From: Candidatus Omnitrophota bacterium
Lineage (GTDB): Bacteria; Omnitrophota; Gorgyraeia; Gygaellales; Profunditerraquicolaceae
Assembly (NCBI GenBank): GCA_041650835.1
Contig: JBAZKL010000004.1
Location: 166,900 to 230,899 of the forward strand
DNA length: 64,000 nucleotides
Direction: 5' to 3'
Of the stretch, positions 12,611 to 35,047 are shown piece after piece. A model generated the notes under the pieces. That model saw only the letters and a list, made by a program, of their open reading frames with translations. It ran no database searches and was not told the origin of the DNA. How positions within the stretch are numbered: position 1 is the stretch's first letter; every line of letters begins with the position of its first letter. The position numbers and the translations under genes are program-made.

Positions 12611-12710
12611 CCCTTACCAAACCTATTTTTCTTTACCGCAAATAAAACAGTGTCAAAACCCGGCCTTTTCCCAATTCCGCGCCTTGCCGATTTTATCGGT
12701 AATTTATTTA

Positions 12711-13043
12711 TTAATTCATTCCCGCGCTGGCTCTAACGGTAACTGCCACGTATTTCCCGGGTTCAGAAGAATAATACTGGACCATCACAGAATCCTCAGT
12801 CCTGATATCGCTCAGGTCGATCTTTTTAGTCCCGCGCGTAAACTGCGTTTCAGGGGTTATCTGAAAGCGGGTATACCCTAATTCGCCGTAAACCACGATA
12901 AAACTTTCCGCGAACCCTACCTGGGCGACAGACCCGGACAAACGCTTAGTCTCAACCTGAGATTGCTGCTCCTTCTCCTGACAATAAGCAGGATACACCG
13001 CTGTCAACACGCATACTACTGCCAAGACAATGATCTTTTTCAT
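12711..13043 (-). CDS. small secreted protein
   Basis: 110 aa with signal peptide. Confidence 0.45.
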   Translation of the reverse strand: MKKIIVLAVVCVLTAVYPAYCQEKEQQSQVETKRLSGSVAQVGFAESFIVVYGELGYTRFQITPETQFTRGTKKIDLSDIRTEDSVMVQYYSSEPGKYVAVTVRASAGMN

Positions 13044-13126
13044 TTTGATATTCCTCCATTTTAAGAAGTCCGTAAAAATCCTTCACCTTGACGGTTTTAT
13101 CCGTAATTTACTTATTTACAAAGACC

Positions 13127-13732
13127 TCAAGAAAACCCATACAATTGATATTTTCTGCATTCTTCAACTATTCCCGTATCTTTATTTATAGTAACAAAAA
13201 TTACCACATCTGTCCACTCAGCCCCTAAATTGCCGGAAGTTGAGATCGTAAAATTATATTTATAGATAACTGTTTCCTGCTCTGGCAAAGTTAGAGGATA
13301 CCCGGGACTTTCATCAGTACTACCTAAAAAACCCCAAAGATCTTTTTCTGCGGTATCGCTGTATATGATCTTAGCTTCGAATGGGTCTTTAAAGGCGCTA
13401 TAAATAGTTCCTTTGGGCTGATTATATAACTTTAAGATCTCCTTATATTCGTCTCCTTCCCAACCGGATCCTTTCTCCAATATCGCCATTACCTTTATAT
13501 TCCTTTCCCTGATCACATCCGGATGGCCAAACCACTCGAAGATCTCCGTTTCCGTAGTCACGCCTTTCTTGATTTTATTAAAAATTGCTTCTATTTTCTC
13601 TATTCTTTTATTCATCGCCTCAGCGTCTGCTTGATCATTGGATTCAGCCTTAACAAAAGGCGCTAAAAATAAACTAAGGGCCAAAAAGAACAATATTAAT
13701 TTTTTCCCGGAAAAAAAACAGTAAGAAAACAA
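13127..13732 (-). CDS. secreted hypothetical protein
   Basis: 201 aa, signal peptide LALSLFLAPFVKA. Confidence 0.45.
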   Translation of the reverse strand: MFSYCFFSGKKLILFFLALSLFLAPFVKAESNDQADAEAMNKRIEKIEAIFNKIKKGVTTETEIFEWFGHPDVIRERNIKVMAILEKGSGWEGDEYKEILKLYNQPKGTIYSAFKDPFEAKIIYSDTAEKDLWGFLGSTDESPGYPLTLPEQETVIYKYNFTISTSGNLGAEWTDVVIFVTINKDTGIVEECRKYQLYGFS

Positions 13733-13758
13733 AATCGCCTCCTTGACGCCACTGCTTG

Positions 13759-15057
13759 TCAGTCTAATTTTATCCTCACAAAGATCATATACCCTAACGG
13801 CATACGGCCATAGCTTGATTTTAATTTATCCGGAAGAATATTCAGGTCACAGGAGCTGCCTATCCCCCATCTCGTATGCTTCCAATCAGGAAGATCATAA
13901 ATATAACCTAAAGTTAATTTGTTCACGGTAAATTTCTCGCCGTGCAAAGGGTCGTCTTCCAGGAATAATTCGTCTTTTGCCACGCGCTCAAACCGGCTGA
14001 AAAGAGTATGCGTTTCCCGGACTCTTATTGTTGACTCCAGAAGAAAACCATCGAGGGACCGCCCGGGAAGATTAACATTGCGCCCCCAGGCAAACGTTGT
14101 TTGCCAATTTGCCCATTTATACGCCTTGTTATAACTTATTGAAACAGAGGTGCGCCTTGTATCGACATCCGGCTCTAATTGTTCAGGGCTATCGATGTAT
14201 CCGAAACTGGCCTGCATAGCCCAATCTTTAGCCGGGTTAAAAGAAAGCCGCATTGACACGGAATCAAATCGGGGCGCTTCGATATCCCAACGGTCCTGGT
14301 CAGGCTCCCTCCCCTTGAATACAGAGGTTTCGGCCTTGATATTCTTCCATATATAGCCTAAGGTAGAAACCCCATAGGTAATGTGGGTGGAATCCAACCA
14401 GTGGTGAGTAATAGGCGCTTCAGGGATATCCATCCCGGAAAATCGATGCATAAAAGCAGGTGGGCCTAATGCCGGCTCACCGGGCAAGCCGAAATAAGTG
14501 AACACTGAACTCTCATCCGATAACGCAAAACTATAGGTACCGGCAAGCTCCATGAAAAGATCATGAGGATGCTGGCGGTCGATCAGCGGGGTCTTTCCGT
14601 CGGCTGTTTCCCCGTTCTGCAGTAAAACAGGGTACCCTGTCTTGCCCATCGCGGGGTCAAGAGAAAGCATGCTCCGTAAACCCAGCGTCCCTTGCGCGAA
14701 CGGCCGCTGCGCCATGAGCATGAACATGCTGGAGCTGAAAGCTTCTTCATCCCCTCTTTTCCCGTTTTGCTTATCATAGATGCCGTTGACAAATCCGTGC
14801 ACCATAACCATCCAATCCTCACGCATAAAATGGATCCCCTCATGCGGTGTTGATTCGGGCTGCCAGCTTGTGCCGGAAGACTCCCGCGCCATTTGATACC
14901 GGCCGTACATACCGTTCATTTGCGTTGATTGCGTTGATTCATCGGGCGACTCCGGCATGGGCATCATCATATGTTCATGTTGGGCAAAAAGAGGGCGCGC
15001 GCAGATAAAAGTCAAAACTCCCAAGGTGAAAGCGATACTACATATCTTTTCCTTCAT
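13759..15057 (-). CDS. secreted / probable outer-membrane protein
   Basis: start set at MKEKICS (AGGAGG RBS 8 bp upstream); signal peptide ending AQ; aromatic-rich alternating pattern; unknown function. Confidence 0.5.
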   Translation of the reverse strand: MKEKICSIAFTLGVLTFICARPLFAQHEHMMMPMPESPDESTQSTQMNGMYGRYQMARESSGTSWQPESTPHEGIHFMREDWMVMVHGFVNGIYDKQNGKRGDEEAFSSSMFMLMAQRPFAQGTLGLRSMLSLDPAMGKTGYPVLLQNGETADGKTPLIDRQHPHDLFMELAGTYSFALSDESSVFTYFGLPGEPALGPPAFMHRFSGMDIPEAPITHHWLDSTHITYGVSTLGYIWKNIKAETSVFKGREPDQDRWDIEAPRFDSVSMRLSFNPAKDWAMQASFGYIDSPEQLEPDVDTRRTSVSISYNKAYKWANWQTTFAWGRNVNLPGRSLDGFLLESTIRVRETHTLFSRFERVAKDELFLEDDPLHGEKFTVNKLTLGYIYDLPDWKHTRWGIGSSCDLNILPDKLKSSYGRMPLGYMIFVRIKLD

Positions 15058-15169
15058 CAACCATCCTCCTTGCTTATTTAAACTTTTCATTGACCTCAGG
15101 CCGGCTAAAGAAACCGATCACAACGGCACGGGATTATGCGAATTCCGGTGACATCATACTTAATCACAA

Positions 15170-15275
15170 AAGCAAAAACCCGAGCTCATGGCCCGGGTTA
15201 AATGATTGATTTTACTATAGAAATTGGCACAGCGTTTGCATATGTTCCTCTTATTGACATTATTATTATATCCCC
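15170..15275 (+). promoter_or_regulatory. composite element D copy 1: bidirectional terminator hairpin plus perfect sigma-54 promoter (TGGCAC-N5-TTGCA at 15224..15239)
   Basis: aacccgagctcatggcccgggtt hairpin flanked by A/T runs; TGGCACagcgtTTGCA matches the -24/-12 consensus exactly. Confidence 0.6.
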
Positions 15276-15307
15276 TTGCTGAGAATAAAACAACGAGAAA
15301 TGGACTC

Positions 15308-15787
15308 TTATTTCGCCTTCTTCTTCGTCGTCTTCTTTGCAGACGGCTTCTTCTTTACTGCCGGCGCTTTGACGGATTTGACTACCGGTGACTTCTCAGG
15401 TGAAGTTTTTTGCGCGGGAGCTGTTTCCTTAGGTTTCACCTCTACCCGCGGCGTGAGGTTGCCGCCAGCCTTACGTTTGGTAAAACATTCCTTACAATAG
15501 ACCGGCCTGCCAACGCTCGGCCTGAACGGGACTTCGCAATTCTTACCGCAATCCGCGCAGATCACCTTGAACATCGGCCTGCTATTATTGTGCCGCTCTA
15601 CGGGCACACTCGGTATCGGCTGCTGCCGGGGTACTTCAACTGTCCTCTCCGGAAGCCGGGTGAGCACAGTATCTATCTTTGTTTCAAGTGAAACGAGCTT
15701 CCCAACCAGTGTCGTGATCAATCCTACAATATCCTGGTCGGCGGCAATAGCGGATGGTGAAGTCTTTTTCTGCGGTGATTTTTTCAT
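15308..15787 (-). CDS. zinc-ribbon (CxxC-x17-CxxC type) protein with lysine-rich histone-H1-like tail
   Basis: CADCGKNCEVPFRPSVGRPVYCKECF motif; C-terminal KKKPSAKKTTKKKAK. Confidence 0.55.
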   Translation of the reverse strand: MKKSPQKKTSPSAIAADQDIVGLITTLVGKLVSLETKIDTVLTRLPERTVEVPRQQPIPSVPVERHNNSRPMFKVICADCGKNCEVPFRPSVGRPVYCKECFTKRKAGGNLTPRVEVKPKETAPAQKTSPEKSPVVKSVKAPAVKKKPSAKKTTKKKAK

Positions 15788-15815
15788 AGAGCTCCTTTAA
15801 TTATAAATGTTAAAC

Positions 15816-15945
15816 AAAAACAGTATCAGGACTCGGCAACTATCTAAAATTATTGGACTTGTGAATTAATTCCACGCCATGCCGATTTTATTTGTAATTT
15901 ACTTATTTACAACAAGTTGCTGAGTTCTGACATTAGTTATTTTTC
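15816..15945 (+). repeat. family A ~130-bp element with 13-bp terminal inverted repeats (copy 1, slightly diverged)
   Basis: aaaaacagtatcaggactc ... gagttctgacatt; same internal ttgccgattttattcgtaatttatttattt core as the other copies. Confidence 0.8.
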
Positions 15946-15949
15946 CTAA

Positions 15950-16065
15950 ACAAAAAACCCGAGCTCTTGGCCCGGGTTTAAATTTTGCTTTTTTATAAAA
16001 AATGGCACAGCCTTTGCATGATCCTCCCACTTAATAGATACCAGCATTATATCCTTACATTGCAA
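15950..16065 (+). promoter_or_regulatory. composite element D copy 2: terminator hairpin plus sigma-54 promoter (16003..16018)
   Basis: aacccgagctcttggcccgggttt hairpin; TGGCACagcctTTGCA. Confidence 0.6.
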
Positions 16066-16202
16066 GTAAATCAAGTATAAAACGAAGCTAAAGTATTATC
16101 ATAAGGGAGGTTTTAGGTCTAGTTTAAACTTTCAGAACCAGGTAATTTTAGAGTCTAAAGGCTAAATATCAAAGGAAGATTAAATTATAAAGGCCTAAGT
16201 TT

Positions 16203-16335
16203 AAAAAAAACAGTGTCAGAACTCGATAACTATCTAAAATTATTGGACTTGTGAATTAATTCCGCGTCTTGCCGATTTTATTCGTAACTTATTTATTTAC
16301 AATAAGTTGCTGAGTTCTAACACTAATTATTTTTC
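16203..16335 (+). repeat. family A element copy 2
   Basis: aaaaaaaacAGTGTCAGAACTCga ... GAGTTCTaACACTaatt. Confidence 0.85.
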
Positions 16336-16394
16336 TTGTCCCGGAATTCCCTGACCAATTACGGCCGGTTTTCTAAACCGCGACCCCGGGATTG

Positions 16395-16634
16395 TCAATA
16401 AATGATCGAGCCTTTCTTTATCTGGTCTTTGCGGATTTCGTATTCTTCTTTGGTAATTCTGCCCGCGCTGTAATCCGCATCCAGCTTATCCATCTGGCTT
16501 TTCGCGCTTATTACATCCGCCGCCCCTACTCCGACAGCCCCGACGGCGGCCCCTCCCCAGAAAGAACCGCATCCGGATAAAACAGTTACCGAAAGAAATA
16601 GAATTACCGCTACAATCACCGTCGTACTTCTCAT
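16395..16634 (-). CDS. lipoprotein with C-terminal SHOCT domain
   Basis: lipobox LSGC; C-terminal GRITKEEYEIRKDQI matches the SHOCT short C-terminal motif. Confidence 0.55.
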   Translation of the reverse strand: MRSTTVIVAVILFLSVTVLSGCGSFWGGAAVGAVGVGAADVISAKSQMDKLDADYSAGRITKEEYEIRKDQIKKGSIIY

Positions 16635-16657
16635 GCCTCCACCTCCTTTTACCTCTG

Positions 16658-17002
16658 TTAGAATATAGCCTCGATTACGCCCGCGACCAGCTTAAAAGGA
16701 AACGCCAGCACCTGCCCTATTAAGTGCAGCGTTGTGCCTAAGATGCCCGCTGGTTCACTTTTACTCCGTTCCTCCCTTACCTCTGTGCGCTTCTCTACTT
16801 TTGTAGCTCCGGTATCTTGCGCCTTCGCGGAACTTTCGCCGCCCACGAAGTTGCCTTGATTGCCTTGCTCCGCAGAATCTCCGGCGGTTGTACGCGTCGT
16901 AACCGTTTCTGACTTAACCGTACTTGAGCCGGCTGTGCATCCCGGGAATACAGACACAGCAAATAAACAAACTACCGCCAACAAAAACACTCTTTTATCC
17001 AT
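16658..17002 (-). CDS. low-complexity secreted lipoprotein
   Basis: lipobox FPGC, S/T/G-rich. Confidence 0.45.
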   Translation of the reverse strand: MDKRVFLLAVVCLFAVSVFPGCTAGSSTVKSETVTTRTTAGDSAEQGNQGNFVGGESSAKAQDTGATKVEKRTEVREERSKSEPAGILGTTLHLIGQVLAFPFKLVAGVIEAIF

Positions 17003-17045
17003 ATACCGCCTCCTTATAATAGGATTACCACCAACAACTGCGACG

Positions 17046-17240
17046 TTATTTTTTTATAGTATTCTTTTTTGACAACCTGGATTTTATATATTCGTCCACT
17101 TCCTCTTTCGCGATCCTGTAGCCGTCACGGTACCCTTCCTTATAGGCCCATAACGTTTTGTTATGGATCAGGCGACTAACAAATCCTTCATTTACTCTTA
17201 AAACTTTAGCGGCTTCTTTTGCAAGGAGAATGCTATTCAT
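17046..17240 (-). CDS. excisionase-family helix-turn-helix DNA-binding protein
   Basis: MNSILLAKEAAKVLRVNEGFVSRLIHNKTLWAYK resembles the excisionase-family DNA-binding domain; start moved to the second Met. Confidence 0.55.
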   Translation of the reverse strand: MNSILLAKEAAKVLRVNEGFVSRLIHNKTLWAYKEGYRDGYRIAKEEVDEYIKSRLSKKNTIKK

Positions 17241-17435
17241 CGTCAAAACCCTTTTGAGGGGTACCTGCATGATAATTTAATTAACTTTAAATTATTTTAT
17301 TGTATTCTAATTTTGTCCGCGTATTCTGTAAATGGCTTGTTTCTGGTTTCTTTTGACTTTTTACCACTAAGCATTCCCAGGGCGCCGCCAAATAAAAAAT
17401 CCCCGGCGGGCCGTTTCCGTCGGGGATAAATAATG

Positions 17436-17566
17436 AAAAAAACAGTGTCAGAATTCGAAAACTATCTAAAATTATTGGATTTGTCTATTAATTCCGAACC
17501 TTGTCGATTTTATTCGTAATTTATTTATTTACAGTAAGTTGTTAAGTTCTGACACTAATTATTCTA
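17436..17566 (+). repeat. family A element copy 3 (abuts the stop of the flavodoxin-like gene)
   Basis: aaaaaaacAGTGTCAGAAtTCga ... aAGTTCTGACACTaatt. Confidence 0.85.
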
Positions 17567-18220
17567 CAGCCAGCCTTTTTCAACCCAATATTTGTATTCT
17601 TCCTGCCAATCGTCTTTTCTGAGCTTAATAATACGAGCAAAGTGCTGCTTCCCCTGCTCGATGATTTGCATCTGATCAGGATAGAGTTTTTTCTCTTTCA
17701 TATCAGAGGCAAGCTTCTTGCCTAATTTGAAAGCCTCGGCTTTCGTATCCTCGCCAAACTGCCGGAGAGCAGAAACGCCTCCGGAATATTGAGCTGCGCA
17801 CGTATGACCGTAAAACGCTATATAATCCAGGACTTCTTTATTCTGGCCGCTACCGGAAGACACGACTCCTGCCACATATTTATTAAACAGTCGTTTACAA
17901 TGAATAAAATGCGCCGATCGGTCAAACAAGGCCTTCATCGATGCAGTCACCTGGTTTATGTAGTTAGGCGAAGCAAAAACTATCCCGTCGGCATTCAACA
18001 TTTTTTTAAGAATGCCTTGCACATCATCTTTGAGCGAGCAGCGTAAGAGATTCTTATGGCAGGCCTCACAGTGTTTACAAAATAACACTTTAAAATCATC
18101 CAGATGCAGCGTTTCGCAAATAACCCCCTCTTCCCTTAAACCTCGTAAAACTTCACCGGCTAAAAGGAATGTGCTGCTTTTTTGCTTATGCGGGCTAGAA
18201 GATATAAGTAGAACATTCAT
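17564..18220 (-). CDS. flavodoxin-like NAD(P)H-dependent FMN reductase / iron-sulfur flavoprotein family
   Basis: MNVLLISSSPHK N-terminus, flavodoxin-like fold pattern, compact Cys cluster CKHCEACHKN. Confidence 0.65.
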   Translation of the reverse strand: MNVLLISSSPHKQKSSTFLLAGEVLRGLREEGVICETLHLDDFKVLFCKHCEACHKNLLRCSLKDDVQGILKKMLNADGIVFASPNYINQVTASMKALFDRSAHFIHCKRLFNKYVAGVVSSGSGQNKEVLDYIAFYGHTCAAQYSGGVSALRQFGEDTKAEAFKLGKKLASDMKEKKLYPDQMQIIEQGKQHFARIIKLRKDDWQEEYKYWVEKGWL

Positions 18221-18251
18221 AATAAAGATCCCCCTAAAGTTACAGTGGTAA

Positions 18252-18352
18252 AAAGTAAACAGTGTCAGAACTCGACAACTATCTAAAACTATTGGACTTG
18301 TGTATTAATTCCATGCCTTGCCGATTTTATCCGTAACTTATTTATTTACACT
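18252..18352 (+). repeat. family A element copy 4 (right arm truncated at the trmO stop codon)
   Basis: aaacAGTGTCAGAACTCgacaactatctaaaactattggacttgtg...tatttatttacac. Confidence 0.8.
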
Positions 18353-18819
18353 TATTCCCTACCTTGAGGCTTATCACGCAACTTTTTTGTCTCTGTCCAC
18401 CCGTTATTCGCATTAGCAAAATAATCGAACCTTGGAATATACGGTTTAATGTCAATTAACGGTGTGCTATCAAGAATATCTATTCCACTCACTTCCAGAA
18501 TATTTTTATTTCTTTTTTCCAGTTTCACGATGGAAATTCCTATCTTATTTGGCCGGCAAGGATGACGAGACGCAAAAACCCCATGAGGCGTATCATCGAG
18601 AAAGGTTGGTCCGGATAATCGTATTTTTTCTGCCTTGTCGAATATGTAGAATAATATAATATGCGAGAATGTCTCTATTGTTTCTAATGCTTCCTCGTAT
18701 TCTAGAAACACTTCAACTTGCCCTTTTCCTTCAGGCTTAACAGATCCTTGAATGGGACACTCTTCTTTTGATCTATATGGAGAATGAATAACCCCAATTT
18801 GTTTTATTTCGATCTTCAT
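18352..18819 (-). CDS. trmO: tRNA (t6A37) methyltransferase TrmO / TsaA-like (YaeB family)
   Basis: IGVIHSPY...CPIQG...GVFASRHPCRPNKIG...IDILDSTPLIDIKPY are hallmark TsaA/YaeB motifs. Confidence 0.8.
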   Translation of the reverse strand: MKIEIKQIGVIHSPYRSKEECPIQGSVKPEGKGQVEVFLEYEEALETIETFSHIILFYIFDKAEKIRLSGPTFLDDTPHGVFASRHPCRPNKIGISIVKLEKRNKNILEVSGIDILDSTPLIDIKPYIPRFDYFANANNGWTETKKLRDKPQGRE

Positions 18820-18840
18820 TATTTTTCTACTCAGAAATTC

Positions 18841-18910
18841 AGCGACTTGCCGATTTTATTCCTAATTTCTTTGTTTAGAGTGAGTTATTGAGTTATGACA
18901 CCAATTATTT
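18841..18910 (+). repeat. family A element, right half only (copy 5)
   Basis: cgacttgccgattttattcctaatttctttgtttagagtgagttattgagttatgacaccaatt. Confidence 0.7.
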
Positions 18911-19140
18911 CGCAAGAAACAGACATAACCGTTTATTTTGCTCATCCTCGTTCTCCATGGGAGCGAGGTACAAATGAAAACACCAATGCTTTAATACGCC
19001 AGTATTTCCCCAAAACTACTGATTTTTCAAAAATCTCGAAAAATAGACTTAAAGAGGTACAGGACGAATTAAACGATCGTCCGCGCAAAACTCTTGGATG
19101 GTATACACCTCACGAAAAATTTACTGAACTGTTGCGTTAG
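18895..19140 (+). pseudogene. IS30-family transposase C-terminal fragment with right inverted repeat (gttgcgttagcaac at about 19130..19150)
   Basis: 81 aa nearly identical to the C-terminus of the intact IS30 transposase at 29671..30666 (ITVYFAHP.SPWERGTNENTN...DRPRKTLGW.TPHE.F.ELLR). Confidence 0.85.
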
Positions 19141-19342
19141 CAACTTGAATCTATCTAACACTAATTATTCCCCGCAACAGTTTTCCACCTATTTCAGGCG
19201 TGACAGTTGGCGGGATGTTTGGTTTATCGCTAAAATTGTTTTTCCATGCCATTCCTTACCTTTTCTTTCTATCTCATCGCTTTTTGCAATTCATAATTCT
19301 TTTTTGTTGTTCTCAAAAGAACATCACCCCTTTTACTAATCA

Positions 19343-22015
19343 TTACGGTTCCAGCTGCTTTTTGCGTTGCTTTCTTGTTTGATCACGACGACCAATAAGC
19401 TGCCTTGAAAAGTCCCTCAAGGAGCTTATATCAGCGAGCACTTCATCAGGTGCAGGACGATCACAATGCAAAGCCTTGGATTTGTCATGACCTGTCATCC
19501 AAGTACTAGCCTTAGATATATGAAGATCAACGCAATGAATATCAGAATCTTCAATAGCCACTCCATTGAGTCTGAGGGTCTGCACGCTGTTTCTGTATCG
19601 ACAAACTACCTTATCGAACAAATCATCCTCAATACAAGATTCCCAAGCTTCACGCAATAATCCGTAAACATAAGCCGCTTCTTTGTTGTACTCTACCATA
19701 TCTTGCTGATAAAAAGATTTAATCTTATTAACCAAATCTTCCAGGTATTGCGCCCGCTGTCCAACCTTCATGGCATGCCAAGGTACACTATTAATTGTAA
19801 TGCCCGCTGACTTTCCGTCACGGCGCAAAGTATGTACGGTGATACTAACTGGCGTACCGGCCTTGGCAAGCGCCATTCCGGCATCCTCCAATTCCATCAG
19901 GAAAGCTATGTTATGAGTAAATATAATGACCTGTCGTTTAAGCCCCTCTTTCGCGAGCCGTTCAGCAATCTTTCCAGTGAATATATGATCGAGCGATGAA
20001 ACTGGATCATCCAACACGATCGCGTTAACATGTGGGACAAGTTGAAGCTCAGCCAGAAAACCAGCAATTGCGATAACTCGTGCCTCACCTTCACTGAGAA
20101 TCTGAGAGATGCGTACCCGGCCTGATATATTAACGCCTTCCAACAAAATCTCGTGTGTAGTCTCCCCTACATCTCCACAAGGCTTAACCGATATAGACAA
20201 ACGATTCGCACCTAACGCAATAAGTTCCTTCTTAAAAGCACTTATCAACTCCGGAGTTAAGTTCTTCTTAATCACCACTGTGCCTTGCCGTGTAATTTCA
20301 TAAGTACTAAGGGTATCAGCCGCTCGCCGCAAATCGGCATTACGCCGAATCTTAGCAACAAGCGCGTAAATATCGACTTTCCTAGCGTTGAGCGCCTTCC
20401 GCGATTTAAGTTCTGTTATGCTGGCGATAAGCTTCTTATATTCCTCAGGCTTAGCCGCATTCGTAATTTCAGTAGCCTTTTGGGTTAATGTTTTGGCAAC
20501 CGATCGTAATGCTGCTTCTACAGATGCTGGCCATGGTGGCAATAATTTCGACCTTTGCGGATCTTCACCTTCTTTGAGTAAAACGAGTGCTGCAGATTTT
20601 CGCACGGCAATCGCTGTGTGATAGGTTCGCAAATCACTTGCCATCGGGACACCCAAACTACTAAGCTCATCACAAATCGAGTCAAGTGTTGCGGCAGTCA
20701 AAGGAGTCACAGCCTCTATCTTTTCCCTCAGCAACTTCAGCGCATTGCGCTTTGTAACTAACACAGTGTTTGTAGCATCTTCCATAAACTTCTTAAAACG
20801 GGCAAAACGGGCAACAGCCTCTTCACCTAGTGGTTGCTGGCAAAAAACACAGACCGCATCATCTGTTTTCGGAAAGGCCTGACCGGGGTAAGCTATCTCC
20901 TCAGAGTATTTCTTTGCTGCCTTATAGAGGATCTCCCATTGATCGGTGGAAGCAACACCTGGTAGCGTTTCGAACGTCTGCCGTTCAGCCACGGCAGCCG
21001 CACGTGCAAGCTGCGCAGCATTCACCTCTAATATAGCGTTCTGGATACCGTCATTCGTCAAATCAACGCACGCAGCTATGAGCTTTGTCACCGCACTTGC
21101 AGCATCGTTAATTCGCCCTTTAATTTTTTCGAGTCGGGCTACCTCTTGAGTTGCTTTCGTGGAATCTGATGTCCTCGCGAGCTCTTCTTGAGCAATCAAT
21201 TGTAACTCATCTTGCGGAGTCCAATTCGTCGCAGCTTGAATAACCTCTTCTTTGGTAGTCTCTAACAAAGACTCGAGAAATTTAGCTGCTGCGGTACCCG
21301 CCGCAATAGCTGAATCCTGAATCGGCATGATAGCCATTATCTCCGTTTCCACGTCTCCCCTAACTCTTTGGACGATCTCCGCCAGCTTCTGAAACACATC
21401 GCAACCATAGGGCAGATAGTTAATCTGATTTCGATCATCAGTAATGATTCGAGCGCAGCGTCCGTCAAATACTGTGATATTGGTCAAAACAGGGTCGACA
21501 GAAACACCTTGAGTCCAAGCAACATCCCTTGACTTATTATCCTGTTTAATCTTTATTATGGCGGTTGGCGCACCAGATGGTGCCTTAACGAAGACATTAG
21601 AAAGGATACGCTCATCCTTATCGCGGGCTTGGCACGCCAGTTTCAAGATTCGGGAATAACCAGACTTACCAGCGCCATTGTCACCATACACCACTGTAAC
21701 ACCACTCTCAGCGAAAGGCTGTGACGCGCCAGCCTTGATGATGTTGACATTTCTAACGTCATCAATTGATAGTAGTTTAACAGCAACTGTTGTTGTGGGA
21801 ACACCCGAGAAGTTACCCGCAACCGGGAGAATAGGCTTGAGTTTTTCGGGAAACGCTGCAATTTTTAAATCTGCTTTGGCCAAAGCCAATATCTCAGAAT
21901 AATCTTGAGCATTGAGCGGCTGGTCACCCTTAGTCAACAGACGACGAACAACGTCTCCTTGCCACGCAGGTAAAGAACTGGCCCATACAATAATATCGTC
22001 AATAGTAGCCATCAA
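19343..22015 (-). CDS. Rad50/SbcC/RecN-like ABC ATPase with long coiled-coil insert and ~75-aa N-terminal extension
   Basis: Walker A VVYGDNGAGKSGYSRIL, about 500 aa coiled coil, C-terminal signature/Walker B/H-loop (SEGEARVIAIA...IVLDDPVSSLD...IIFTHN); 890 aa. Confidence 0.8.
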   Translation of the reverse strand: MMATIDDIIVWASSLPAWQGDVVRRLLTKGDQPLNAQDYSEILALAKADLKIAAFPEKLKPILPVAGNFSGVPTTTVAVKLLSIDDVRNVNIIKAGASQPFAESGVTVVYGDNGAGKSGYSRILKLACQARDKDERILSNVFVKAPSGAPTAIIKIKQDNKSRDVAWTQGVSVDPVLTNITVFDGRCARIITDDRNQINYLPYGCDVFQKLAEIVQRVRGDVETEIMAIMPIQDSAIAAGTAAAKFLESLLETTKEEVIQAATNWTPQDELQLIAQEELARTSDSTKATQEVARLEKIKGRINDAASAVTKLIAACVDLTNDGIQNAILEVNAAQLARAAAVAERQTFETLPGVASTDQWEILYKAAKKYSEEIAYPGQAFPKTDDAVCVFCQQPLGEEAVARFARFKKFMEDATNTVLVTKRNALKLLREKIEAVTPLTAATLDSICDELSSLGVPMASDLRTYHTAIAVRKSAALVLLKEGEDPQRSKLLPPWPASVEAALRSVAKTLTQKATEITNAAKPEEYKKLIASITELKSRKALNARKVDIYALVAKIRRNADLRRAADTLSTYEITRQGTVVIKKNLTPELISAFKKELIALGANRLSISVKPCGDVGETTHEILLEGVNISGRVRISQILSEGEARVIAIAGFLAELQLVPHVNAIVLDDPVSSLDHIFTGKIAERLAKEGLKRQVIIFTHNIAFLMELEDAGMALAKAGTPVSITVHTLRRDGKSAGITINSVPWHAMKVGQRAQYLEDLVNKIKSFYQQDMVEYNKEAAYVYGLLREAWESCIEDDLFDKVVCRYRNSVQTLRLNGVAIEDSDIHCVDLHISKASTWMTGHDKSKALHCDRPAPDEVLADISSLRDFSRQLIGRRDQTRKQRKKQLEP

Positions 22016-22047
22016 TTACTCTCCAGGGTACCTGTCTACTGTAAAAT

Positions 22048-23580
22048 TCAGACTATTGGTCTATCCACTCCATCATCTTCCGATACATCAATAGGCAGTA
22101 AGGCGGTAGCCTCACCTACGGGAAGCTCCTGCACATCCTTGAGTTTTCTCCCGATGCCCCTTGACCTAACTTTAGCTTGTTCAATTGTGTCTGATGCTTG
22201 ATGTAACTTATTTTGCACTGCATCCAAAACATCGCCATACTTCGTCCACTCGGTTTTGACTGCAGCAAGAAGATTCCAGACCTCACTAGAACGCTTCTGG
22301 ATAGCAAGCGTTCGAAAACCCATCTGAAGACTGTTTAAAATAGACCATAGGGTAGTCGGACCAGCGATAACCACACGGCATTCCCGTTGGATAACCTCGA
22401 TCAAGCCCGTCCTACGAATGACTTCAGCAAAGAGACCCTCTATAGGTAAAAACAGAATACCGAAGTCCGTGGTTTTTGGCGGATTTAAATATTTTTTAGA
22501 GATGTCAGATGCACAAATCTTGACACGATTCTCCAACTGTTTACTCGCCGCTTCAACTCCTTCAATATCTGCTCTTTCTTGAGCCTCAATCAAACGCTGA
22601 TAGTCTTCAACAGGAAACTTAGCGTCAACCGGGAGCCAGACAACATCATCCTTATCAGTGCCTTTTCCCGGCAGTTTGATCGCAAACTCAACACGCTCGC
22701 CTCCCTCTTTCGTAGCCACGTTGATGCCAAACTGATCAGGATTGAGCACCTGCTCTAACAACGCCCCAAGTTGCACTTCACCCCACGTCCCACGTGTTTT
22801 GACATTTGTAAGTACCTTTTTAAGATCACCAACACCCGTAGCAAGCGTTTGCATCTCCCCAAGTCCTTTATGCACCATCTCCAGACGTTCACTGACTTGC
22901 TTAAAGGATTCACCCAAGCGCCTTTCCAATGTCCCCTGGAGTTTCTCGTCCACGGTCTGGCGCATTTGTTCAAGCTGCTTGGCGTTATCAATCTGCATGC
23001 TTTGAAGTTTACTTTCCACCGCGACCCTGACTGACTCCAGTTTTTTCTCATTTGAATCCGAAAGTCTACCAATCGCGGTTGACATAATTTCAAGTTGGGT
23101 TTTCTGAAGATTGGCCAATTCGCCCATTGTTTTAGTGGTGGCTTCCGTAATCCCCTTAAGAGTTGCAATAACCTCTTCCCTTAACTGTTTAGCTCCAGTG
23201 GCAGACTCGGCACGAACACCATCCAAGCGTTCACCGCTAGCCTTGGCGAAAGAAGCAAGTTGATTAGAAAAAACATCGAGTTGCCCCTTCTGCATATTGG
23301 CTATATCCATCATTCGTTGTACCACCGAATCGCCAAAGACTTTAAATGCTTCGGCGAGCTCCTGTCTTTGTTCTCTTGTCGTCTTACCCATTTCGTCTCT
23401 GCTCTGAGCCACTTCTTCTCTAACCGCATGCTCAGTACGTTCTTGTGCCTTTTCCAAAACATCAAGACGAGAGGCAATCAAAGAAGGATCAGTTTGGTAT
23501 AGTTTCTTTGAGATAACAAGCAAAACAGCTACCACGCCAACCAGCAAAACAAGAATCACAAATAACAGTATATTAATCAC
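22048..23580 (-). CDS. rmuC: DNA recombination protein RmuC family (TM anchor, coiled coil, RmuC nuclease-like domain)
   Basis: N-terminal TM, extensive coiled coil, C-terminal TTDFGILFLPIEGLFAEV...VIAGPTTLWSIL characteristic of RmuC. Confidence 0.8.
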   Translation of the reverse strand: MINILLFVILVLLVGVVAVLLVISKKLYQTDPSLIASRLDVLEKAQERTEHAVREEVAQSRDEMGKTTREQRQELAEAFKVFGDSVVQRMMDIANMQKGQLDVFSNQLASFAKASGERLDGVRAESATGAKQLREEVIATLKGITEATTKTMGELANLQKTQLEIMSTAIGRLSDSNEKKLESVRVAVESKLQSMQIDNAKQLEQMRQTVDEKLQGTLERRLGESFKQVSERLEMVHKGLGEMQTLATGVGDLKKVLTNVKTRGTWGEVQLGALLEQVLNPDQFGINVATKEGGERVEFAIKLPGKGTDKDDVVWLPVDAKFPVEDYQRLIEAQERADIEGVEAASKQLENRVKICASDISKKYLNPPKTTDFGILFLPIEGLFAEVIRRTGLIEVIQRECRVVIAGPTTLWSILNSLQMGFRTLAIQKRSSEVWNLLAAVKTEWTKYGDVLDAVQNKLHQASDTIEQAKVRSRGIGRKLKDVQELPVGEATALLPIDVSEDDGVDRPIV

Positions 23581-23618
23581 AAAAACCTCCTTAAAAATCC
23601 CTTAAACTCATAAAATTT

Positions 23619-23837: not shown

Positions 23838-23937
23838 CGTATTTCCTTTCTTTAGTACTCACCTTCAGTCATCTGCCAGCCATAGCGCTTAAACAATTGC
23901 TCTGTTTTTGCCTAGTCATTCTCATTCAAATTTCATA

Positions 23938-24049
23938 GACGCTGTATCCAACCTACTATAATCCTTACACTTACAAAACAATTACTTCCGCCCAGCACAA
24001 AAGGATTGTTTTGCAACTCAAAGAAGCATTATCGGTTACGTATAGCGTC
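23938..24049 (+). repeat. family B ~115-bp inverted-repeat element copy 1 (terminal IR gacgctgtat / tatagcgtc; internal ATCCAAC and ttacaaaacaatt/aattgttttgcaa)
   Basis: near-identical copy at 30727..30837. Confidence 0.8.
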
Positions 24050-24162
24050 TAGGATTCCCCTTGCCATTTGCCTACCTCCCTCATCTGAATAGAATAGTAA
24101 ATCCCAACCGCCATCCATAATAAAATCCCGAAAGCTTTAAGATTCCATATATGTTTAACAAA

Positions 24163-25710: not shown

Positions 25711-25735
25711 TATTTTTCTCCATACTTAACAAATA

Positions 25736-25859
25736 GCAAGACGTTTTATCCAACATCATAATTATCAACGCGTTACAAAACAATTTCTTAATCTTATCTG
25801 TCTTCAGCATTTGTTATGCAACTTAATAACGAAGAAATAGTTAGACAAAACGTCTTATT
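25736..25859 (+). repeat. family C ~120-bp inverted-repeat element copy 1 with integron-core-like ends (ATCCAAC ... GTTAGAC)
   Basis: caagacgttttATCCAACat...ttacaaaacaatt...aataGTTAGACaaaacgtcttatt; terminal IR aagacgtttt/aaaacgtctt. Confidence 0.8.
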
Positions 25860-25885
25860 AATATCGTTTTTGTCATAATTTCCAT

Positions 25886-26356: not shown

Positions 26357-26419
26357 TTCTTAAGTAATATTCCAAAGTTCTTTTATTCTATTTACTATAT
26401 GCTGCCATTTTTTTGAATA

Positions 26420-26515
26420 GCAAGACGTTTTATTCAACATTATGATTCTCAACGCGTTACAAAACAATTCATTAATCTTATCTGTCTTCAGTATTTGTTA
26501 TGTAACTAAAAAACG
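26420..26515 (+). repeat. family C element copy 2 (right end diverged)
   Basis: caagacgttttATTCAACat...ttacaaaacaatt... Confidence 0.75.
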
Positions 26516-26524
26516 AATATAGGA

Positions 26525-26650
26525 AAAAACAGTATCTGAACTCGATGACTATCTAAAATTATTGGACTTATGAATTAATTCCGCACCTTGCCGATTTTAT
26601 TCCTAATTTATTTGATTCCAGTGAGTTATTGAGTTCTGACACCAATTATC
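26525..26650 (+). repeat. family A element copy 6
   Basis: aaaaaacagtatctgaactcgatgac ... GAGTTCTGACACcaatt. Confidence 0.85.
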
Positions 26651-26707
26651 TAATTCTAAAGAGATAAACCATCTTACATCGGCACGTATTGGCCAATACT
26701 TAAAACC

Positions 26708-29389: not shown

Positions 29390-29431
29390 GTTTTCACCTC
29401 TTTATTGATTACAATGATTCTGATCTGAATA

Positions 29432-29558
29432 AAAAAACAGTGTCAGAACTCGACAACTATCTAAAACTATTGGACTTGTGAATTAATTCCGTGACTTGCT
29501 GATTTTATTCGTAACTTATTTATTTACTGTAAGTTATTGAGTTCTGACATTAATTATT
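29432..29558 (+). repeat. family A element copy 7
   Basis: aaaaaaacAGTGTCAGAACTCgac ... GAGTTCTGACAtTaatt. Confidence 0.85.
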
Positions 29559-29644
29559 CAATTGCAATCTTATCAATTCAGACAGTTTACTCAATTCACG
29601 CATATCCGCTAAATGAAGCGACTGATAGTAATTCTCCTTATAGA

Positions 29645-30716
29645 ATTTCATAGACTGTAGATTCAAATTACTAACGCAACAACTCGCTGAATCTTTCGTG
29701 AGGCGTATGCCAGCCAAGAGTTTTTCTTGGCCGGTCGTTTAATTCATCTTGAACTTCTTTTAATCTGGTCCTTGAGATCTTTGAAAAATCTGTTCCTTTA
29801 GGGAAATACTGCCTTAATAAGGAATTTGTGTTTTCATTAGTTCCCCGCTCCCAGGGGGAATGCGGGTGAGCAAAATAAACGGTTATTTTTGTTTCTTTTG
29901 TAAATAGCTTATGCTGACACATCTCACCACCCTGGTCGTAGGTAAGCGTTCTTTTCAATCCTGGGGGTAAACTGCGGAATTCTTCGCCAAAAGATCTTCT
30001 GATAGTTGAGGCGTCCTGGTTCCGTAGTTTTACTAAGAAGGCCATGCGTGTCGTACGCTCAACGAGGGTTCCAATGGCTGAGGCATTACGTCGCCCGATT
30101 ATTAAATCGCCTTCCCAGTGTCCAGGGATAGTGCGGTCGGCTACTTCTTGCGGGCGTTCTTCGATGCTAAAGTAATCCTGTATGCTGCCTGGTTTCCCTC
30201 GTCTGCCATCTTTTTTGCGGCGGTATTTATGGTTTCTTCTAAGATAAGATATAAGCCTGCGCTTGAAGGTGCCGCGAGGTAAAACATAGATATGGGAGTA
30301 AATTGTTTCGTGAGAGACGCGCATAGACATATCATTAGGATACAATACAATGAGTCTCTTGGCAATCTGTTCAGGTGACCAGTTTTTTGTTAAATAAGAA
30401 AGAACGAGTTTTCTTAACAGCGCGTTAGTGGCAAGTTTACGATTCTTGCGTATCTTGTGACGCGTTTTGATCGACTGCTGCTGAACGAAAATAGCACGGT
30501 AATATTTTAATTCTACTACCCCTGACTGACGTATTTCTCTGGATATACTACTGGGCGACCTGTTGAGAATACCGGCTATTGTTCGCAAACTGGATCCTAA
30601 TGCAATTTGACGGCTGATCTCTTCGCGCTCAAAGAGCGAGATTCGGTGATATTTTATCATTCGCAACTCCTTTCATCCGCTATTATAGCAGATTAAAGTG
30701 TTGCGTTAGTTGCTTG
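29645..30716 (-). mobile_element. intact IS30-family insertion sequence (about 1.07 kb)
   Basis: terminal inverted repeats ...ttactaacgcaacaac (left) and gttgcgttagttgc (right) flank a full-length transposase gene. Confidence 0.8.
29671..30666 (-). CDS. IS30-family transposase (DDE)
   Basis: N-terminal HTH, HWEGDLIIG, ...YFAHPHSPWERGTNENTNSLLRQ... IS30 signature; 331 aa. Confidence 0.9.
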   Translation of the reverse strand: MRMIKYHRISLFEREEISRQIALGSSLRTIAGILNRSPSSISREIRQSGVVELKYYRAIFVQQQSIKTRHKIRKNRKLATNALLRKLVLSYLTKNWSPEQIAKRLIVLYPNDMSMRVSHETIYSHIYVLPRGTFKRRLISYLRRNHKYRRKKDGRRGKPGSIQDYFSIEERPQEVADRTIPGHWEGDLIIGRRNASAIGTLVERTTRMAFLVKLRNQDASTIRRSFGEEFRSLPPGLKRTLTYDQGGEMCQHKLFTKETKITVYFAHPHSPWERGTNENTNSLLRQYFPKGTDFSKISRTRLKEVQDELNDRPRKTLGWHTPHERFSELLR

Positions 30717-30726
30717 AGTCTAAGGA

Positions 30727-30837
30727 CCGCTGTATCCAACCTACTATAATCCTTACACTTACAAAACAATTAGATAGGTTCAAGCAAAAGAATTGTTTTG
30801 CAACTTAAAGAAGCATTATCGGTTACGTACAGCGTCC
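30727..30837 (+). repeat. family B element copy 2
   Basis: ccgctgtATCCAACctactataatccttacacttacaaaacaatt...aattgttttgcaactt...ggttacgtacagcgtcc. Confidence 0.8.
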
Positions 30838-30865
30838 TTAGGATTTCCATGACTCCTTAAACCTA

Positions 30866-31783
30866 TTAATGTATGCCAGGAAGCTGAATAACCTTTTGCG
30901 ATTGTATAAAGGCAGCTCCCATATGGTTTTCGATAATTTTACAAGCAGTGGTACTGGATAAAGTATGAATAAAAGTATGATGTACACTCAATGCAGCATT
31001 TTGAATGTCTTGGTTGTCTTCTAACATTGATATGATCAAACCGATCTCTTTACACCTCTCAGGGGGCAGATGTCTTGAATGAGATAATGTTTCATCATGG
31101 CTTCCTATTACACTGACAATTTTGTTAATAGAATCAGTTTTTTGAGGTTCGGGTAAATTCGCAAACATTCCTGTGCCCAACCATTTCTTAACAAGATACT
31201 CTGACCAAGTAATTGCCTTTTGACATTCGCCAATAAATGCTGGAGGATATTTAGCAATTATTGGTTGCCAAACTGGTATTTTTGCAGAATCCAGTTTAAT
31301 CTCCTCATAAGCTTTCGAGAATTCTTCAATCACACCGTGACATGGTATTCCATTAAATTGAGGATCTATTGGACCCAAGCTGGAATGTTTCCCCATTAGT
31401 ACTTCTTTACAAGCACATGCTATCATTGTACCACCAGACATTGAAAGCTGCGGAACGATCGCTCTTATATTAGTCCCAAATAAACTCCTCAAGTAATCAA
31501 CAAGAGATTCTGTAGCAGCAGTTTCACCTCCCGGAGTATGCAAAATCAAATCTAATCCTTTCGACCAATCCATACCTTTTAAGGCTGACATAAATCCATT
31601 TTTATCATTGTCATTTATAGAAACCAGTTGGGGATCAGCCTTTTTTTGCAGCCATCCTGAATAATAAGCAATTACATTACGTCCTGTTAAATCATATAAT
31701 TTTTTTAAATAGCTGCGCCGAACAATATCTTGCGTACTACCAAGTTGGTGTATTTCTTCTCCTAATTCTTTCCAATTACCCAT
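30866..31783 (-). CDS. SDH-family (S49/ClpP-fold) serine protease
   Basis: LILHTPGGE and SMSGGTMIACAC motifs typical of the ClpP/SppA fold (serine dehydrogenase proteinase family); 8-bp overlap with upstream small ORF. Confidence 0.65.
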   Translation of the reverse strand: MGNWKELGEEIHQLGSTQDIVRRSYLKKLYDLTGRNVIAYYSGWLQKKADPQLVSINDNDKNGFMSALKGMDWSKGLDLILHTPGGETAATESLVDYLRSLFGTNIRAIVPQLSMSGGTMIACACKEVLMGKHSSLGPIDPQFNGIPCHGVIEEFSKAYEEIKLDSAKIPVWQPIIAKYPPAFIGECQKAITWSEYLVKKWLGTGMFANLPEPQKTDSINKIVSVIGSHDETLSHSRHLPPERCKEIGLIISMLEDNQDIQNAALSVHHTFIHTLSSTTACKIIENHMGAAFIQSQKVIQLPGIH

Positions 31784-32009
31784 TGTTTATCTCCAGCCCT
31801 ACAGTATCTGTAGTTATCATAATATTCCAAGTACTCCCTGATCTTTCCATGGTTAAATCATTCCTCAATCCTTCAAAAGGATTTGGAATCTTCAAAAGTT
31901 CGTATAATTCAATAATCTCTTTATCAGTGAATTTTTTCATAATAAGACAACCTAAAGAAAATATTTGCAGCGGGGCTATAGCCTTCCCAAACCAGCCAAA
32001 TAATTCCAT
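31776..32009 (-). CDS. small protein translationally coupled to the SDH protease
   Basis: 77-aa ORF overlapping the protease start by 8 bp. Confidence 0.45.
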   Translation of the reverse strand: MELFGWFGKAIAPLQIFSLGCLIMKKFTDKEIIELYELLKIPNPFEGLRNDLTMERSGSTWNIMITTDTVGLEINNG

Positions 32010-32038
32010 TCGTCATTTTTGAACCTTTTCTACCCCCG

Positions 32039-32170
32039 CAAAAAAAACAGTGTCAGAACTCGATGACTATCTAGAATTATTGGACTTGTGAATTAATTCC
32101 GCGTCTTGCCGATTTTATTCGTAATTTATTTATTTACAGTGAGTTATTGAATTCTAACGCTAATTATTTA
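32039..32170 (+). repeat. family A element copy 8 (abuts cyclase stop codon)
   Basis: aaaaaaaacAGTGTCAGAACTCgatgac ... GAaTTCTaACgCTaatt. Confidence 0.85.
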
Positions 32171-33124
32171 TCGAAACCTCACCTTATGAACTTTATAAGG
32201 TTTATCGTCTTCACCTTTATACTGCCAATCATCTCTTAGTTTTATCTCGTTGCAGCCTTCGCGCCACGTTGTATGTAAATTCCTCTCGGTTATATCTCCC
32301 AGAAGGATATCTCCTGGATTACCTAAGCTCTGAATTTTCGCGGCTAAACTAACAACTGAACCAATTATGTCCTTGTGCCTTTTTGTGTTAGGGCTACCGA
32401 TAGCTATTATACAGGCATCTCCAGAATCTAAGCCTATTCTAATATTGATGGTAGGGTAACCATTTTCCTCAAGCATTTGATTTACTCCACTATATATCAG
32501 CCTTCTTACTGTTAAAGAGCAGTCTAGAGCCAAATCATTTTTTATTATAAAGCTTGGCTCAGGGAAATATGCTATCAGCCCATCTCCGGTATATTTTAAA
32601 ACATGCCCATGGAACTTAGGAACAATTTCGCTCATTTCATATAAAATGACAGATATTAATTTCGCATATTTCTGGAGATCCAGGCTTTTTGATAGCTTTG
32701 TTGAACCAGCTAAATCTACACACATAATAACGAATCCCAAGCTATCAGTGGCTAATGACTCCAAGAACTCTTCTGACTTATCCTTAAAAACATAAGGTTC
32801 TTCTTCCGATTTTAATCTTTCACGAATCAACGGTATTCTCTCTTGAATATATTTCTCTGCATCACCGATTTCTTGCCGTTGCAGATACATTGGCTTTCCA
32901 GCTAATTGCTTTGCAAAATCAGCAAATACGTTTTCAGGAAAAATAATTTTATCAAATTTATCATATAAATACCGCTTCCCATTTATGTCTTTCCATTCAT
33001 ACCTTCTGGGGTCTGGGAGTAATCTCACTGTAAATATCTTTTTATCATCATCCACAGAAATAACTTCTTGAACAAAGTCCATCCTAAAAGCTTTGGTCTT
33101 ATCAGACACGCTTGAATTCTCCAT
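32168..33124 (-). CDS. class III nucleotidyl (adenylate/guanylate-type) cyclase with ~130-aa N-terminal extension
   Basis: cyclase-homology-domain motifs VIMCVDLAGSTKL, KYTGDGLIAYF, IRIGLDSGDACI, GSVVSLAAKIQS. Confidence 0.75.
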   Translation of the reverse strand: MENSSVSDKTKAFRMDFVQEVISVDDDKKIFTVRLLPDPRRYEWKDINGKRYLYDKFDKIIFPENVFADFAKQLAGKPMYLQRQEIGDAEKYIQERIPLIRERLKSEEEPYVFKDKSEEFLESLATDSLGFVIMCVDLAGSTKLSKSLDLQKYAKLISVILYEMSEIVPKFHGHVLKYTGDGLIAYFPEPSFIIKNDLALDCSLTVRRLIYSGVNQMLEENGYPTINIRIGLDSGDACIIAIGSPNTKRHKDIIGSVVSLAAKIQSLGNPGDILLGDITERNLHTTWREGCNEIKLRDDWQYKGEDDKPYKVHKVRFR

Positions 33125-33852: not shown

Positions 33853-33984
33853 TTACACCTCCTCGTTCTGGAAATCCATCATACTGAACATATCAAAGAA
33901 TTGGTATGCCGTCTGCAAACCTGTAATTTGGTAAATAGTAATAATAGGAAACGTTTCTATCTTTCTCATACAAAAGCCACCAGA

Positions 33985-35045: not shown

Positions 35046-35047
35046 AG

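Follow-up and report, generated by a model that had tools for sequence, protein, structure and literature searches.

To our knowledge, integrons are the only well-understood store of individually delimited gene cassettes that can be shuffled. Their recombination sites, attC, are homogeneous imperfect palindromes of 57–141 bp, as exemplified by the Vibrio VCRs (Vibrio cholerae repeats) and the attCs of Planctomycetes (Ghaly et al. 2021). The repeat described here, Family A (~125 bp), is found in a 64-kb stretch of contig JBAZKL010000004.1 of Candidatus Omnitrophota bacterium (this whole stretch is referred to below as the window), where it ends the cassettes of a gene array. Like attC arrays and the clusters of attC sites lacking integron-integrases (CALINs), this array has one repeat at the 3′ end of each cassette, co-oriented open reading frames (ORFs), a compact layout, and variable content; its copies are homogenised within the genome, and its cassettes include anti-phage defence genes. 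Unlike attC, Family A is devoid of the RYYYAAC/GTTRRRY cores, the L-box invariants, extrahelical bases, and the unpaired spacer. The locus also differs from integrons in that the 64 kb yielded no IntI, the attC profile score is strongly negative, some segments are multi-gene and reach 7.6 kb, and the array is headed by a unit of promoter, mini-ORF, and terminator, and not by intI–attI–Pc.

Two other groups of described systems are close to this locus. The SPRITE, ERIC, Correia, and REP/BIME repeats are, like Family A, short non-coding palindromes transcribed together with the upstream gene, and form hairpins (followed by a U-run in Family A) that can terminate or stabilise transcripts; ERIC, at ~127 bp, is an imperfect palindrome as well. 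These repeats are scattered over whole genomes, in many cases in both orientations, and Correia elements have TA target duplications, whereas Family A is confined to one array in one orientation, has no duplications, and is unrelated to them in sequence. The variable defence locus of Streptococcus suis (PMC5398294) and the core defence hotspots of Pseudomonas (PMC10250203) exchange their content by homologous recombination of conserved flanks. The locus described here resembles them in its fixed site (in this case, beside a tRNA gene), in the different systems it carries in related genomes, and in having no associated integrase. Unlike those loci, which are bounded by core genes, it has each module delimited by a dedicated repeat, which makes it a multi-slot array.

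We consider Family A to be a locus-restricted cassette-end module of a hypervariable, mostly anti-phage array adjacent to tRNA-Ser(GGA) in Candidatus Omnitrophota, and assign this reading a probability of roughly 0.5. The repeat is neither a canonical attC nor a transposing miniature inverted-repeat transposable element (MITE); the locus has an integron-like architecture based on a non-attC repeat. In the mRNA, the arms of the element would close a long hairpin right before the U-run, and each cassette would thereby be closed for translation and ended or insulated in transcription, with its 3′ end possibly protected as well, judging from sequence and folding. In the DNA, the repeats, as the sole sequence common to otherwise unrelated cassettes, would serve as the sites of gain, loss, and permutation. 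The simplest route of cassette turnover would be homologous recombination or gene conversion, either among the resident copies or with copies on incoming DNA.

The arm motif AGTGTCAGAACTC has 14 matches with two mismatches or fewer in the window versus 0.76 expected, and none of 100 shuffles reached this number. A repeat search of the window recovered a 133-nt family. An nhmmer profile built on ten full copies revealed six full copies of an AT-rich imperfect palindrome of ~125–133 bp in the window, along with two that are half decayed and two remnants; every copy listed in the original prediction is present. The window copies are all located within 12.6–32.2 kb, and nhmmer found no further copies in the other 44 kb; the probability that ten uniformly placed points span at most 19.5 kb of 64 kb is ~2e-4. 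The starts of neighbouring copies are separated by 390–2908 bp, except for one 7.7-kb gap, and this spacing agrees with the definition of a CALIN (at least two same-strand sites within 4 kb). The orientation is identical in all window copies, as had been predicted, and all of them are located 3′ of minus-strand genes. This position holds, although the strand is not an independent observation, since every gene of the window is on the minus strand.

All copies listed here are on the minus strand and are given in order from the array head. The full copy at 32040–32172 (nhmmer E = 3e-41) closes the Pycsar cassette, which consists of a 65-aa ORF, a TIR effector (33145–33609), and PycC (32168–33124); the PycC stop codon (32168–32170) is 6 nt ahead of the 5′ arm. 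The full copy at 29430–29562 closes a cassette made up of a 77-aa ORF and the gene of a ClpP-like SDH protease, into which an IS30 has been inserted, and the ATG of an 893-aa STAND NTPase is 41 nt downstream of it. The STAND NTPase cassette is in turn closed by the full copy at 26522–26654. A decayed copy at 18835–18913 (profile positions 4–82), which has the 5′ arm and the core without the 3′ arm, closes the 7.6-kb segment containing a 156-aa ORF, an Mrr-type IV restriction enzyme, RmuC, and the PDC-S06 ATPase; it adjoins an IS30 fragment, and a TrmO-like ORF starts 17 nt downstream. The second decayed copy, at 18252–18352 (profile positions 36–136), has retained the core, the 3′ arm, and the T-run and has an eroded 5′ arm; the TrmO-like ORF ends 2 nt ahead of the conserved TGTAAATAAATAA block of this copy. 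The full copy at 17435–17567 begins right after the stop codon of a 218-aa flavodoxin gene, the one at 16203–16335 closes a cassette of an HTH_17 gene and two small ORFs (114 and 79 aa), and the one at 15813–15945 is situated between promoter-leader unit B, described below, and the zf_Tbcl_2 gene, whose ATG is 26 nt downstream. Of the two remnants, that at 13077–13123 is a core only, with the stop codon of a 201-aa ORF in its TAAATAAG block and the start of a 110-aa ORF 34 nt downstream. The other, at 12640–12712, comprises the core and the distal 3′ arm (TTGACACTG and the T-run), and the stop codon of the 110-aa ORF is inside its core. Altogether, the T-run is 17–41 nt from the next ATG at seven of ten junctions, and stop codons are located 0–60 nt upstream of the element or within it; this includes those at 17564, 18352, and 32168, which had been predicted to abut it.

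On the gene strand, the element starts with an A-rich lead, (G/A)A(A/G)TAATT, with TAA/TAG stops. It is followed by a 5′ arm of 20 nt, AGTGTCAGAACTCAATAACT, a centre of 73 nt that is conserved to the same degree as the arms, and a complementary 3′ arm of 20 nt, AGTTATCGAGTTCTGACACT. The opening block of the centre, TGTAAATAAATAA (also written TAAATAAATAA), contains stops in all three frames. After the 3′ arm there is one G and then T5–8 in eight of ten full copies; the A-run seen ahead of the left arm on the plus strand corresponds to this T/U-run after the hairpin. The 20 + 73 + 20 nt layout is found in nine of ten copies, the tenth having a centre of 69 nt, and the GC content of the element is 26–32%. 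Each arm contains two tandem ANAACTCA octamers, AAC and GTT triplets are placed symmetrically in the arms, and the A·C mismatch at arm position 14 (gene strand) is invariant in all ten full copies. The original prediction described a ~130-bp element with 13-bp perfect inverted repeats. The repeat is real, while its perfection is a property of the consensus only: individual copies have at least one mismatch in the first 13 arm positions, and the arms are actually 20 bp long. Aligned as direct repeats, the copies are 78–94% identical, and the likeness is up to 92–94% within a genome versus 88% at most between genomes. Copy 16203 reads as a mosaic, in which the left 25 nt are similar to copy 15813 and the rest to copy 32040.

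The comparison of related genomes included two array-bearing genomes and one array-less genome. The relative bearing an array is an uncultured ‘Planctomycetales’ metagenome-assembled genome (MAG), and L009, L102, L109, and L111 all denote the same contig of it. Its hydrolase and outer-membrane-protein (OMP) blocks are 92–95% identical to those of the window, and at the same tRNA-Ser locus the relative has four Family A copies in identical orientation with wholly different cassette genes. The gene order in it is tRNA-Ser, zf_Tbcl_2, the promoter-leader unit, SIR2–HerA–KTSC–HEPN, element, GIY-YIG, element, 336-aa ORF, element, 235-aa and 130-aa ORFs, element, hydrolase, and OMP. The order of the hydrolase and OMP blocks is swapped between the window and the relative, and the window remnant 12640–12712 is the counterpart of the intact element beside the hydrolase gene in the relative. 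In the third Omnitrophota genome (L118), the flanks are 83–86% identical, and there is neither an array nor a promoter-leader unit; its locus consists of tRNA-Ser, a methyltransferase gene, zf_Tbcl_2, a 212-aa ORF, flavodoxin-191, and flavodoxin-218. Across the three genomes, cassettes have been both turned over and permuted.

Two host genes conserved in the lineage have changed place, with gene-precise boundaries. In zf_Tbcl_2 (15308–15787 in the window; 8232–8699 in L118), homology begins at the ATG, and in flavodoxin-218 (17564–18220 in the window; 10001–10657 in L118), it begins 14 nt ahead of the ATG and ends at the stop codon. Both are adjacent-cluster genes in L118 and separate element-bounded units in reversed order in the window. 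The nucleotide identity of flavodoxin-218 between the window and L118 is 91%, which is above the 83–86% of the housekeeping flanks. The sole trace of Family A in L118 is a 37-nt solo 3′ arm with a T-run (12140–12176), 97% identical to window positions 16203–16239 and located 20 nt upstream of a 200-aa ORF. This can be explained either as the footprint of a lost element or as a minimal functional piece. The hydrolase was rejected as an anchor of the locus, having homologues of ~60% identity (L112, L114, and L116) in unrelated contexts without arrays. Judging from gene lists only, a relative with a 70% identical RecN has no array-like gene content after RecN; as for contigs with a 95% identical RecN, L123 stops at RecN and the other runs ~1 kb into different genes.

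The original prediction offered an attC-like site as an alternative, and this is upheld at the array level (each co-oriented cassette has one repeat at its 3′ end, the cassettes are compact, and close relatives differ completely in content) and fails at the level of the site. The remark that canonical RYYYAAC/GTTRRRY cores are missing is correct: the arms read ..GTCAGAAC.. and ..GTTCTGAC.., and only the AAC and GTT triplets fit the R″/R′ cores. The Planctomycetes attC model is based on 188 sites (PMC8352920, Supplementary Data 1). The first half of its consensus consists of R″ GCCUAAC, a 5-nt spacer, and L″ GUU-G-CAgC with an extrahelical G, and the second half of L′ GCUGAaC, a 6-nt spacer, and R′ GUUAGGC (PMC8352920). 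The two conserved 20-nt blocks of the HMM filter of this model were converted to position-weight matrices, for which a true attC is expected to score 21.9 ± 4.6 plus 17.8 ± 4.2 bits (about +40). In this sequence-only re-implementation with a fixed 6-nt spacer, which is not the IntegronFinder covariance model, the scores of the ten full copies are strongly negative on both strands (−7 to −27 bits). The best ordered pair in the window reaches 8.0 bits and is located away from any element, and the scores of the copies with an R-box-only profile are −0.8 to 7.9 bits. Positions U15, A18, and U86, which are near-invariant in this model, are unmatched in Family A. There is no extrahelical base, bulge, or unpaired central spacer in the element, the ‘spacer’ being paired save for one A·C mismatch, and the two AAC motifs of each arm are direct, not inverted.

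Nor was a recombinase found. Pfam scans of window minus-strand ORFs of at least 150 aa revealed no tyrosine recombinase, a tblastn search of the window, L111, L109, and L118 with IntI1 yielded only chance fragments, and no intI, attI, and Pc accompany the array in the window. A crossover at the 44-nt core was suggested by seemingly shared breakpoints and by the duplicated cores flanking TrmO and the 110-aa ORF. It was rejected after gap-tolerant realignment, which indicated eroded or internally deleted arms with partly kept outer ends. The shared breakpoints of the partial copies thus reflect decay or hairpin-disabling deletion and are not evidence of crossover.

A non-canonical attC-type site, i.e., a CALIN-like platform on which a divergent IntI or some other site-specific recombinase, with its gene beyond the window, reads the folded or duplex palindrome, is an unlikely explanation, though one with several observations behind it. 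One homogeneous ~125-bp palindrome ends each co-oriented cassette, content is unlike between relatives that are 92–95% identical, two host genes have moved with gene-precise boundaries, and the copies are homogenised within each genome. The AAC/GTT triplets are symmetric, the A·C asymmetry is found in 10/10 copies, the tandem ANAACTCA octamers are possible binding sites, the promoter-leader unit heads both arrays and is missing from the array-less genome, and integron cassettes store defence systems (10.1101/2024.07.02.601686; 10.1101/2024.07.02.601719). Against these stand the profile scores and unmatched positions given above, the exactly symmetric arms (20 + 73 + 20 nt) without an extrahelical base and with direct AAC motifs, the lack of a tyrosine recombinase among the sequences found in the window, the relative’s contig, or L118, and the lack of a demonstrated fixed crossover point. 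More generally, the existence of a dedicated recombinase encoded elsewhere seems doubtful to us. We retain this option because the uniform 73-nt centre and the invariant A·C asymmetry are not explained by a plain terminator.

Family A shares the outward features of a MITE, which was the other identity proposed for it: inverted repeats of 13–20 bp, a length of ~125 bp, AT-richness, the absence of an ORF, and intergenic positions at gene 3′ ends. Repeated insertion at these ends, with copies retained for terminating transcription, would also be in line with the effect of MITEs such as Correia, ERIC, and SPRITE on transcript ends (PMC10969869) and with the solo arm fragment in the third genome. 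The claim is not supported by the checks that bear on it, namely target duplications, a cognate transposase, and dispersal of copies. No target-site duplication and no direct repeat outside the conserved ends was found at any of the ten full copies. The only transposase gene of the window belongs to IS30 (complete copy at 29658–30722), and its 24-bp inverted repeats are unrelated to Family A, which rules it out as the mobiliser. All copies share a single array and a single orientation. When species-representative genomes and metagenome contigs were scanned with core patterns, 98 and 11 loci were returned, respectively, and those outside L009, L109, and L102 are single chance matches each. A pattern fitting three of the relative’s four copies matched that locus alone in the metagenome collection, and the relative’s species-representative MAG has a match on one contig only. 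No copies outside the array were detected by nhmmer in the relative’s contigs, and three viral scans and BLAST searches of phages and plasmids revealed no relatives of Family A. The MITE explanation is largely refuted, and we regard it as highly improbable.

The view of Family A as a cassette-end module implies that the element terminates or insulates transcripts, and its folding is consistent with this. When the gene strand was folded as RNA, the outer stem was present in the minimum-energy structure of all ten copies (z-scores from −1.0 to −4.7). The consensus fold has 11 + 6 (17) outer pairs and an apical hairpin studded with mismatches. The U-run, where present, starts within 1 nt of the stem, and a hairpin with a U-tract at the end of a transcription unit, as found here with all copies 3′ of ORFs, is one feature of intrinsic terminators. 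The terminator part of the original prediction is plausible on these folds and on the T-runs (8/10 copies). Furthermore, each of the four decayed copies has one arm lost or eroded and the core kept, and these copies precede host-like genes (TrmO-like, flavodoxin, the 110-aa ORF, and hydrolase) that lack space for their own promoter. The pattern is consistent with read-through after loss of the hairpin and would lend indirect support to a terminating hairpin.

Several facts weigh against this interpretation. Covariation is nearly absent (the RNAalifold covariation term is +0.77), and therefore the pairing is not demonstrably selected beyond sequence conservation; besides the fixed A·C, the arm mismatches are 13 A·C, 11 G·U, and 5 others, and a compensatory AT-to-GC change in both arms is seen only in copy 15813–15945. 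The AT-rich stem (11 + 6 bp) around a 73-nt interior is unlike the short GC-rich terminators found elsewhere in the genome. A consensus terminator scan, which looks for compact GC-rich stem-loops, did not call Family A and did call the GC-rich hairpins at 15177–15199 and 15955–15979. Folded as DNA, some copies are no better than shuffles. The centre is no less conserved than the arms, which goes beyond what a plain terminator accounts for and hints at a function in protein binding or recombination. Cassettes 25–40 nt downstream would be promoterless if termination were efficient at every copy. Finally, the restriction to one locus is based on the 64-kb window and the collection scans, and only two of the genomes compared bear an array.

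Three further lines were followed. Strand asymmetry of the arm mismatches was rejected as a means of discriminating an RNA hairpin from a bottom-strand DNA hairpin, there being no bias (13 vs. 11, the fixed A·C aside). An internal sigma70-type promoter, TTGTAA-16-TAAAAT, is present in only two copies and is too weak to claim. Searches of Rfam in the gathering and E-value modes found no family matching Family A.

The uniform conservation of arms and centre without covariation could also be explained by a duplex-DNA binding site, such as an operator or a nucleoid-protein site, which co-regulates or silences foreign cassettes, the hairpin and recombination being incidental. The length-symmetric, imperfect nested palindrome with 1 × 1 mismatches apically, the tandem octamers in each arm, and the very high AT content (26–32% GC) are in agreement with this. 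AT-richness is typical of the targets of xenogeneic silencers. Meanwhile, the array has no linked candidate regulator (zf_Tbcl_2 also occurs in the array-less genome), and the U-run, the stop-codon blocks, and the strict gene-end position are left unexplained, so we rate this possibility as improbable.

As for the array itself, it occupies positions 12713–33942 (minus strand) and consists of 10 element-bounded segments of 0.26–7.6 kb. The GC content of the cassettes is 31–47% versus 47–51% in the flanks, which contain housekeeping genes (hydrogenase, a two-component system, RecN, KDPG aldolase, SerRS, RtcB, and lpx genes). The tRNA-Ser(GGA) gene (35047–35130, minus strand) is a conserved landmark upstream of the array position in all three genomes, and the array starts ~1 kb downstream of it. 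Most inter-element segments are anti-phage defence modules, namely the Pycsar, STAND NTPase, and Mrr–RmuC–PDC-S06 segments; the remaining ones carry the 77-aa ORF with the ClpP-like SDH protease gene, the TrmO-like gene, the 218-aa flavodoxin gene, the HTH_17 gene with two small ORFs, and the zf_Tbcl_2 and OMP genes. Tandem accretion of tRNA-targeting islands was considered as the origin of the array and rejected: the repeat shows no relationship to the 3′ end of tRNA-Ser, and there is no integrase in any cassette. In the largest segment, the PDC-S06 ATPase (890 aa; AAA_13; PADLOC E = 1.7e-187) is directly followed by the 510-aa RmuC-family protein (19343–23580), and the two genes may form a candidate defence system.

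At the array head there is promoter-leader unit A (33943–34172, minus strand), composed of a promoter, an 8-codon mini-ORF, and a GC-rich terminator; two further copies on the same strand, units B and C, are at 15948–16205 and 15169–15305. The promoter of the unit is sigma70-like, TTGnTT-17-TATAAT. The unit also has a ribosome-binding site and a mini-ORF that is conserved and encodes MQRLFHFL, MQRLCHFL, or MQTLCQFL; the terminator ACCCGGGCCAAGAGCTCGGGTTTTT starts ~15 nt after the stop codon of this mini-ORF. It heads the array in both array-bearing genomes (L111 1349–1637 in the relative) and is not present in the array-less L118. Rfam gave only sub-threshold matches to it (anti-hemB, 23 bits; Leu_leader, 20 bits). 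By its layout, the unit looks like a leader-peptide attenuator or a mobile promoter module.

Other repeats can be noted in the window. A family ‘B’ of ~130 bp (25732–25861, 26414–26517, and 11616–11660 in the window; 9056–9185 in L111) has 10-bp inverted ends, AAGACGTTTT...AAAACGTCTT, and is always located just ahead of an ORF start (the Mrr, 156-aa, 160-aa, and 130-aa ORFs); a possible role for it is that of a promoter or 5′-untranslated-region module. A 107-bp palindrome is found twice, at 30728–30834 and 23940–24049, with a 45-bp stretch that is 100% identical and a 52-bp stretch that is 94% identical. The first copy directly adjoins the complete IS30, the second has no recognised IS30 beside it, and this palindrome may be an IS30 target hotspot. 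The IS30 fragment bordering the decayed Family A copy 18835–18913 is at 18895–19140 (plus strand). Each of the three tRNA-Ser genes (GGA, CGA, and UGA) is trailed by a common repeat of ~100–170 bp with ACGAGCAGGAATCTTYGTTAGC-like sub-repeats (~34946–35044, 45067–45242, and 51795–51974), conserved in L111 and L118. A palindrome distinct from Family A, GGTGACAGTCAC-N-GTGACTGTCACC, is flanked by A- and T-runs and occurs at 34205–34239 and ~34640–34670 in the window and at 10920–10954 and 11870–11900 in L118. It resembles a bidirectional terminator that is native to the lineage and recurs in it.

A ~125-base palindromic repeat that ends defence-gene cassettes has not been described previously. Integrons have recently been shown to bank anti-phage defence systems (10.1101/2024.07.02.601686; 10.1101/2024.07.02.601719), and an integron-like layout whose repeat fails every site-level criterion of attC, in a poorly studied candidate phylum, has one of two implications. 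Either an integron-type solution arose with different parts, or repeated terminator modules and homologous recombination suffice to build a multi-slot defence bank. The former could, tentatively and with low confidence, be pictured as a gene-capture platform of Omnitrophota that is analogous to integrons and independent of them: a unit-headed array at tRNA-Ser, with palindrome-ended cassettes captured with gene precision, would have taken up foreign defence systems and host genes from the ribosome-binding site to the stop codon, the palindrome being read by a recombinase or made from transcripts ending at the hairpin. Either outcome informs how defence islands are assembled and how gene cassettes originate, and the Family A repeat provides a handle for mining new defence genes in related metagenomes.

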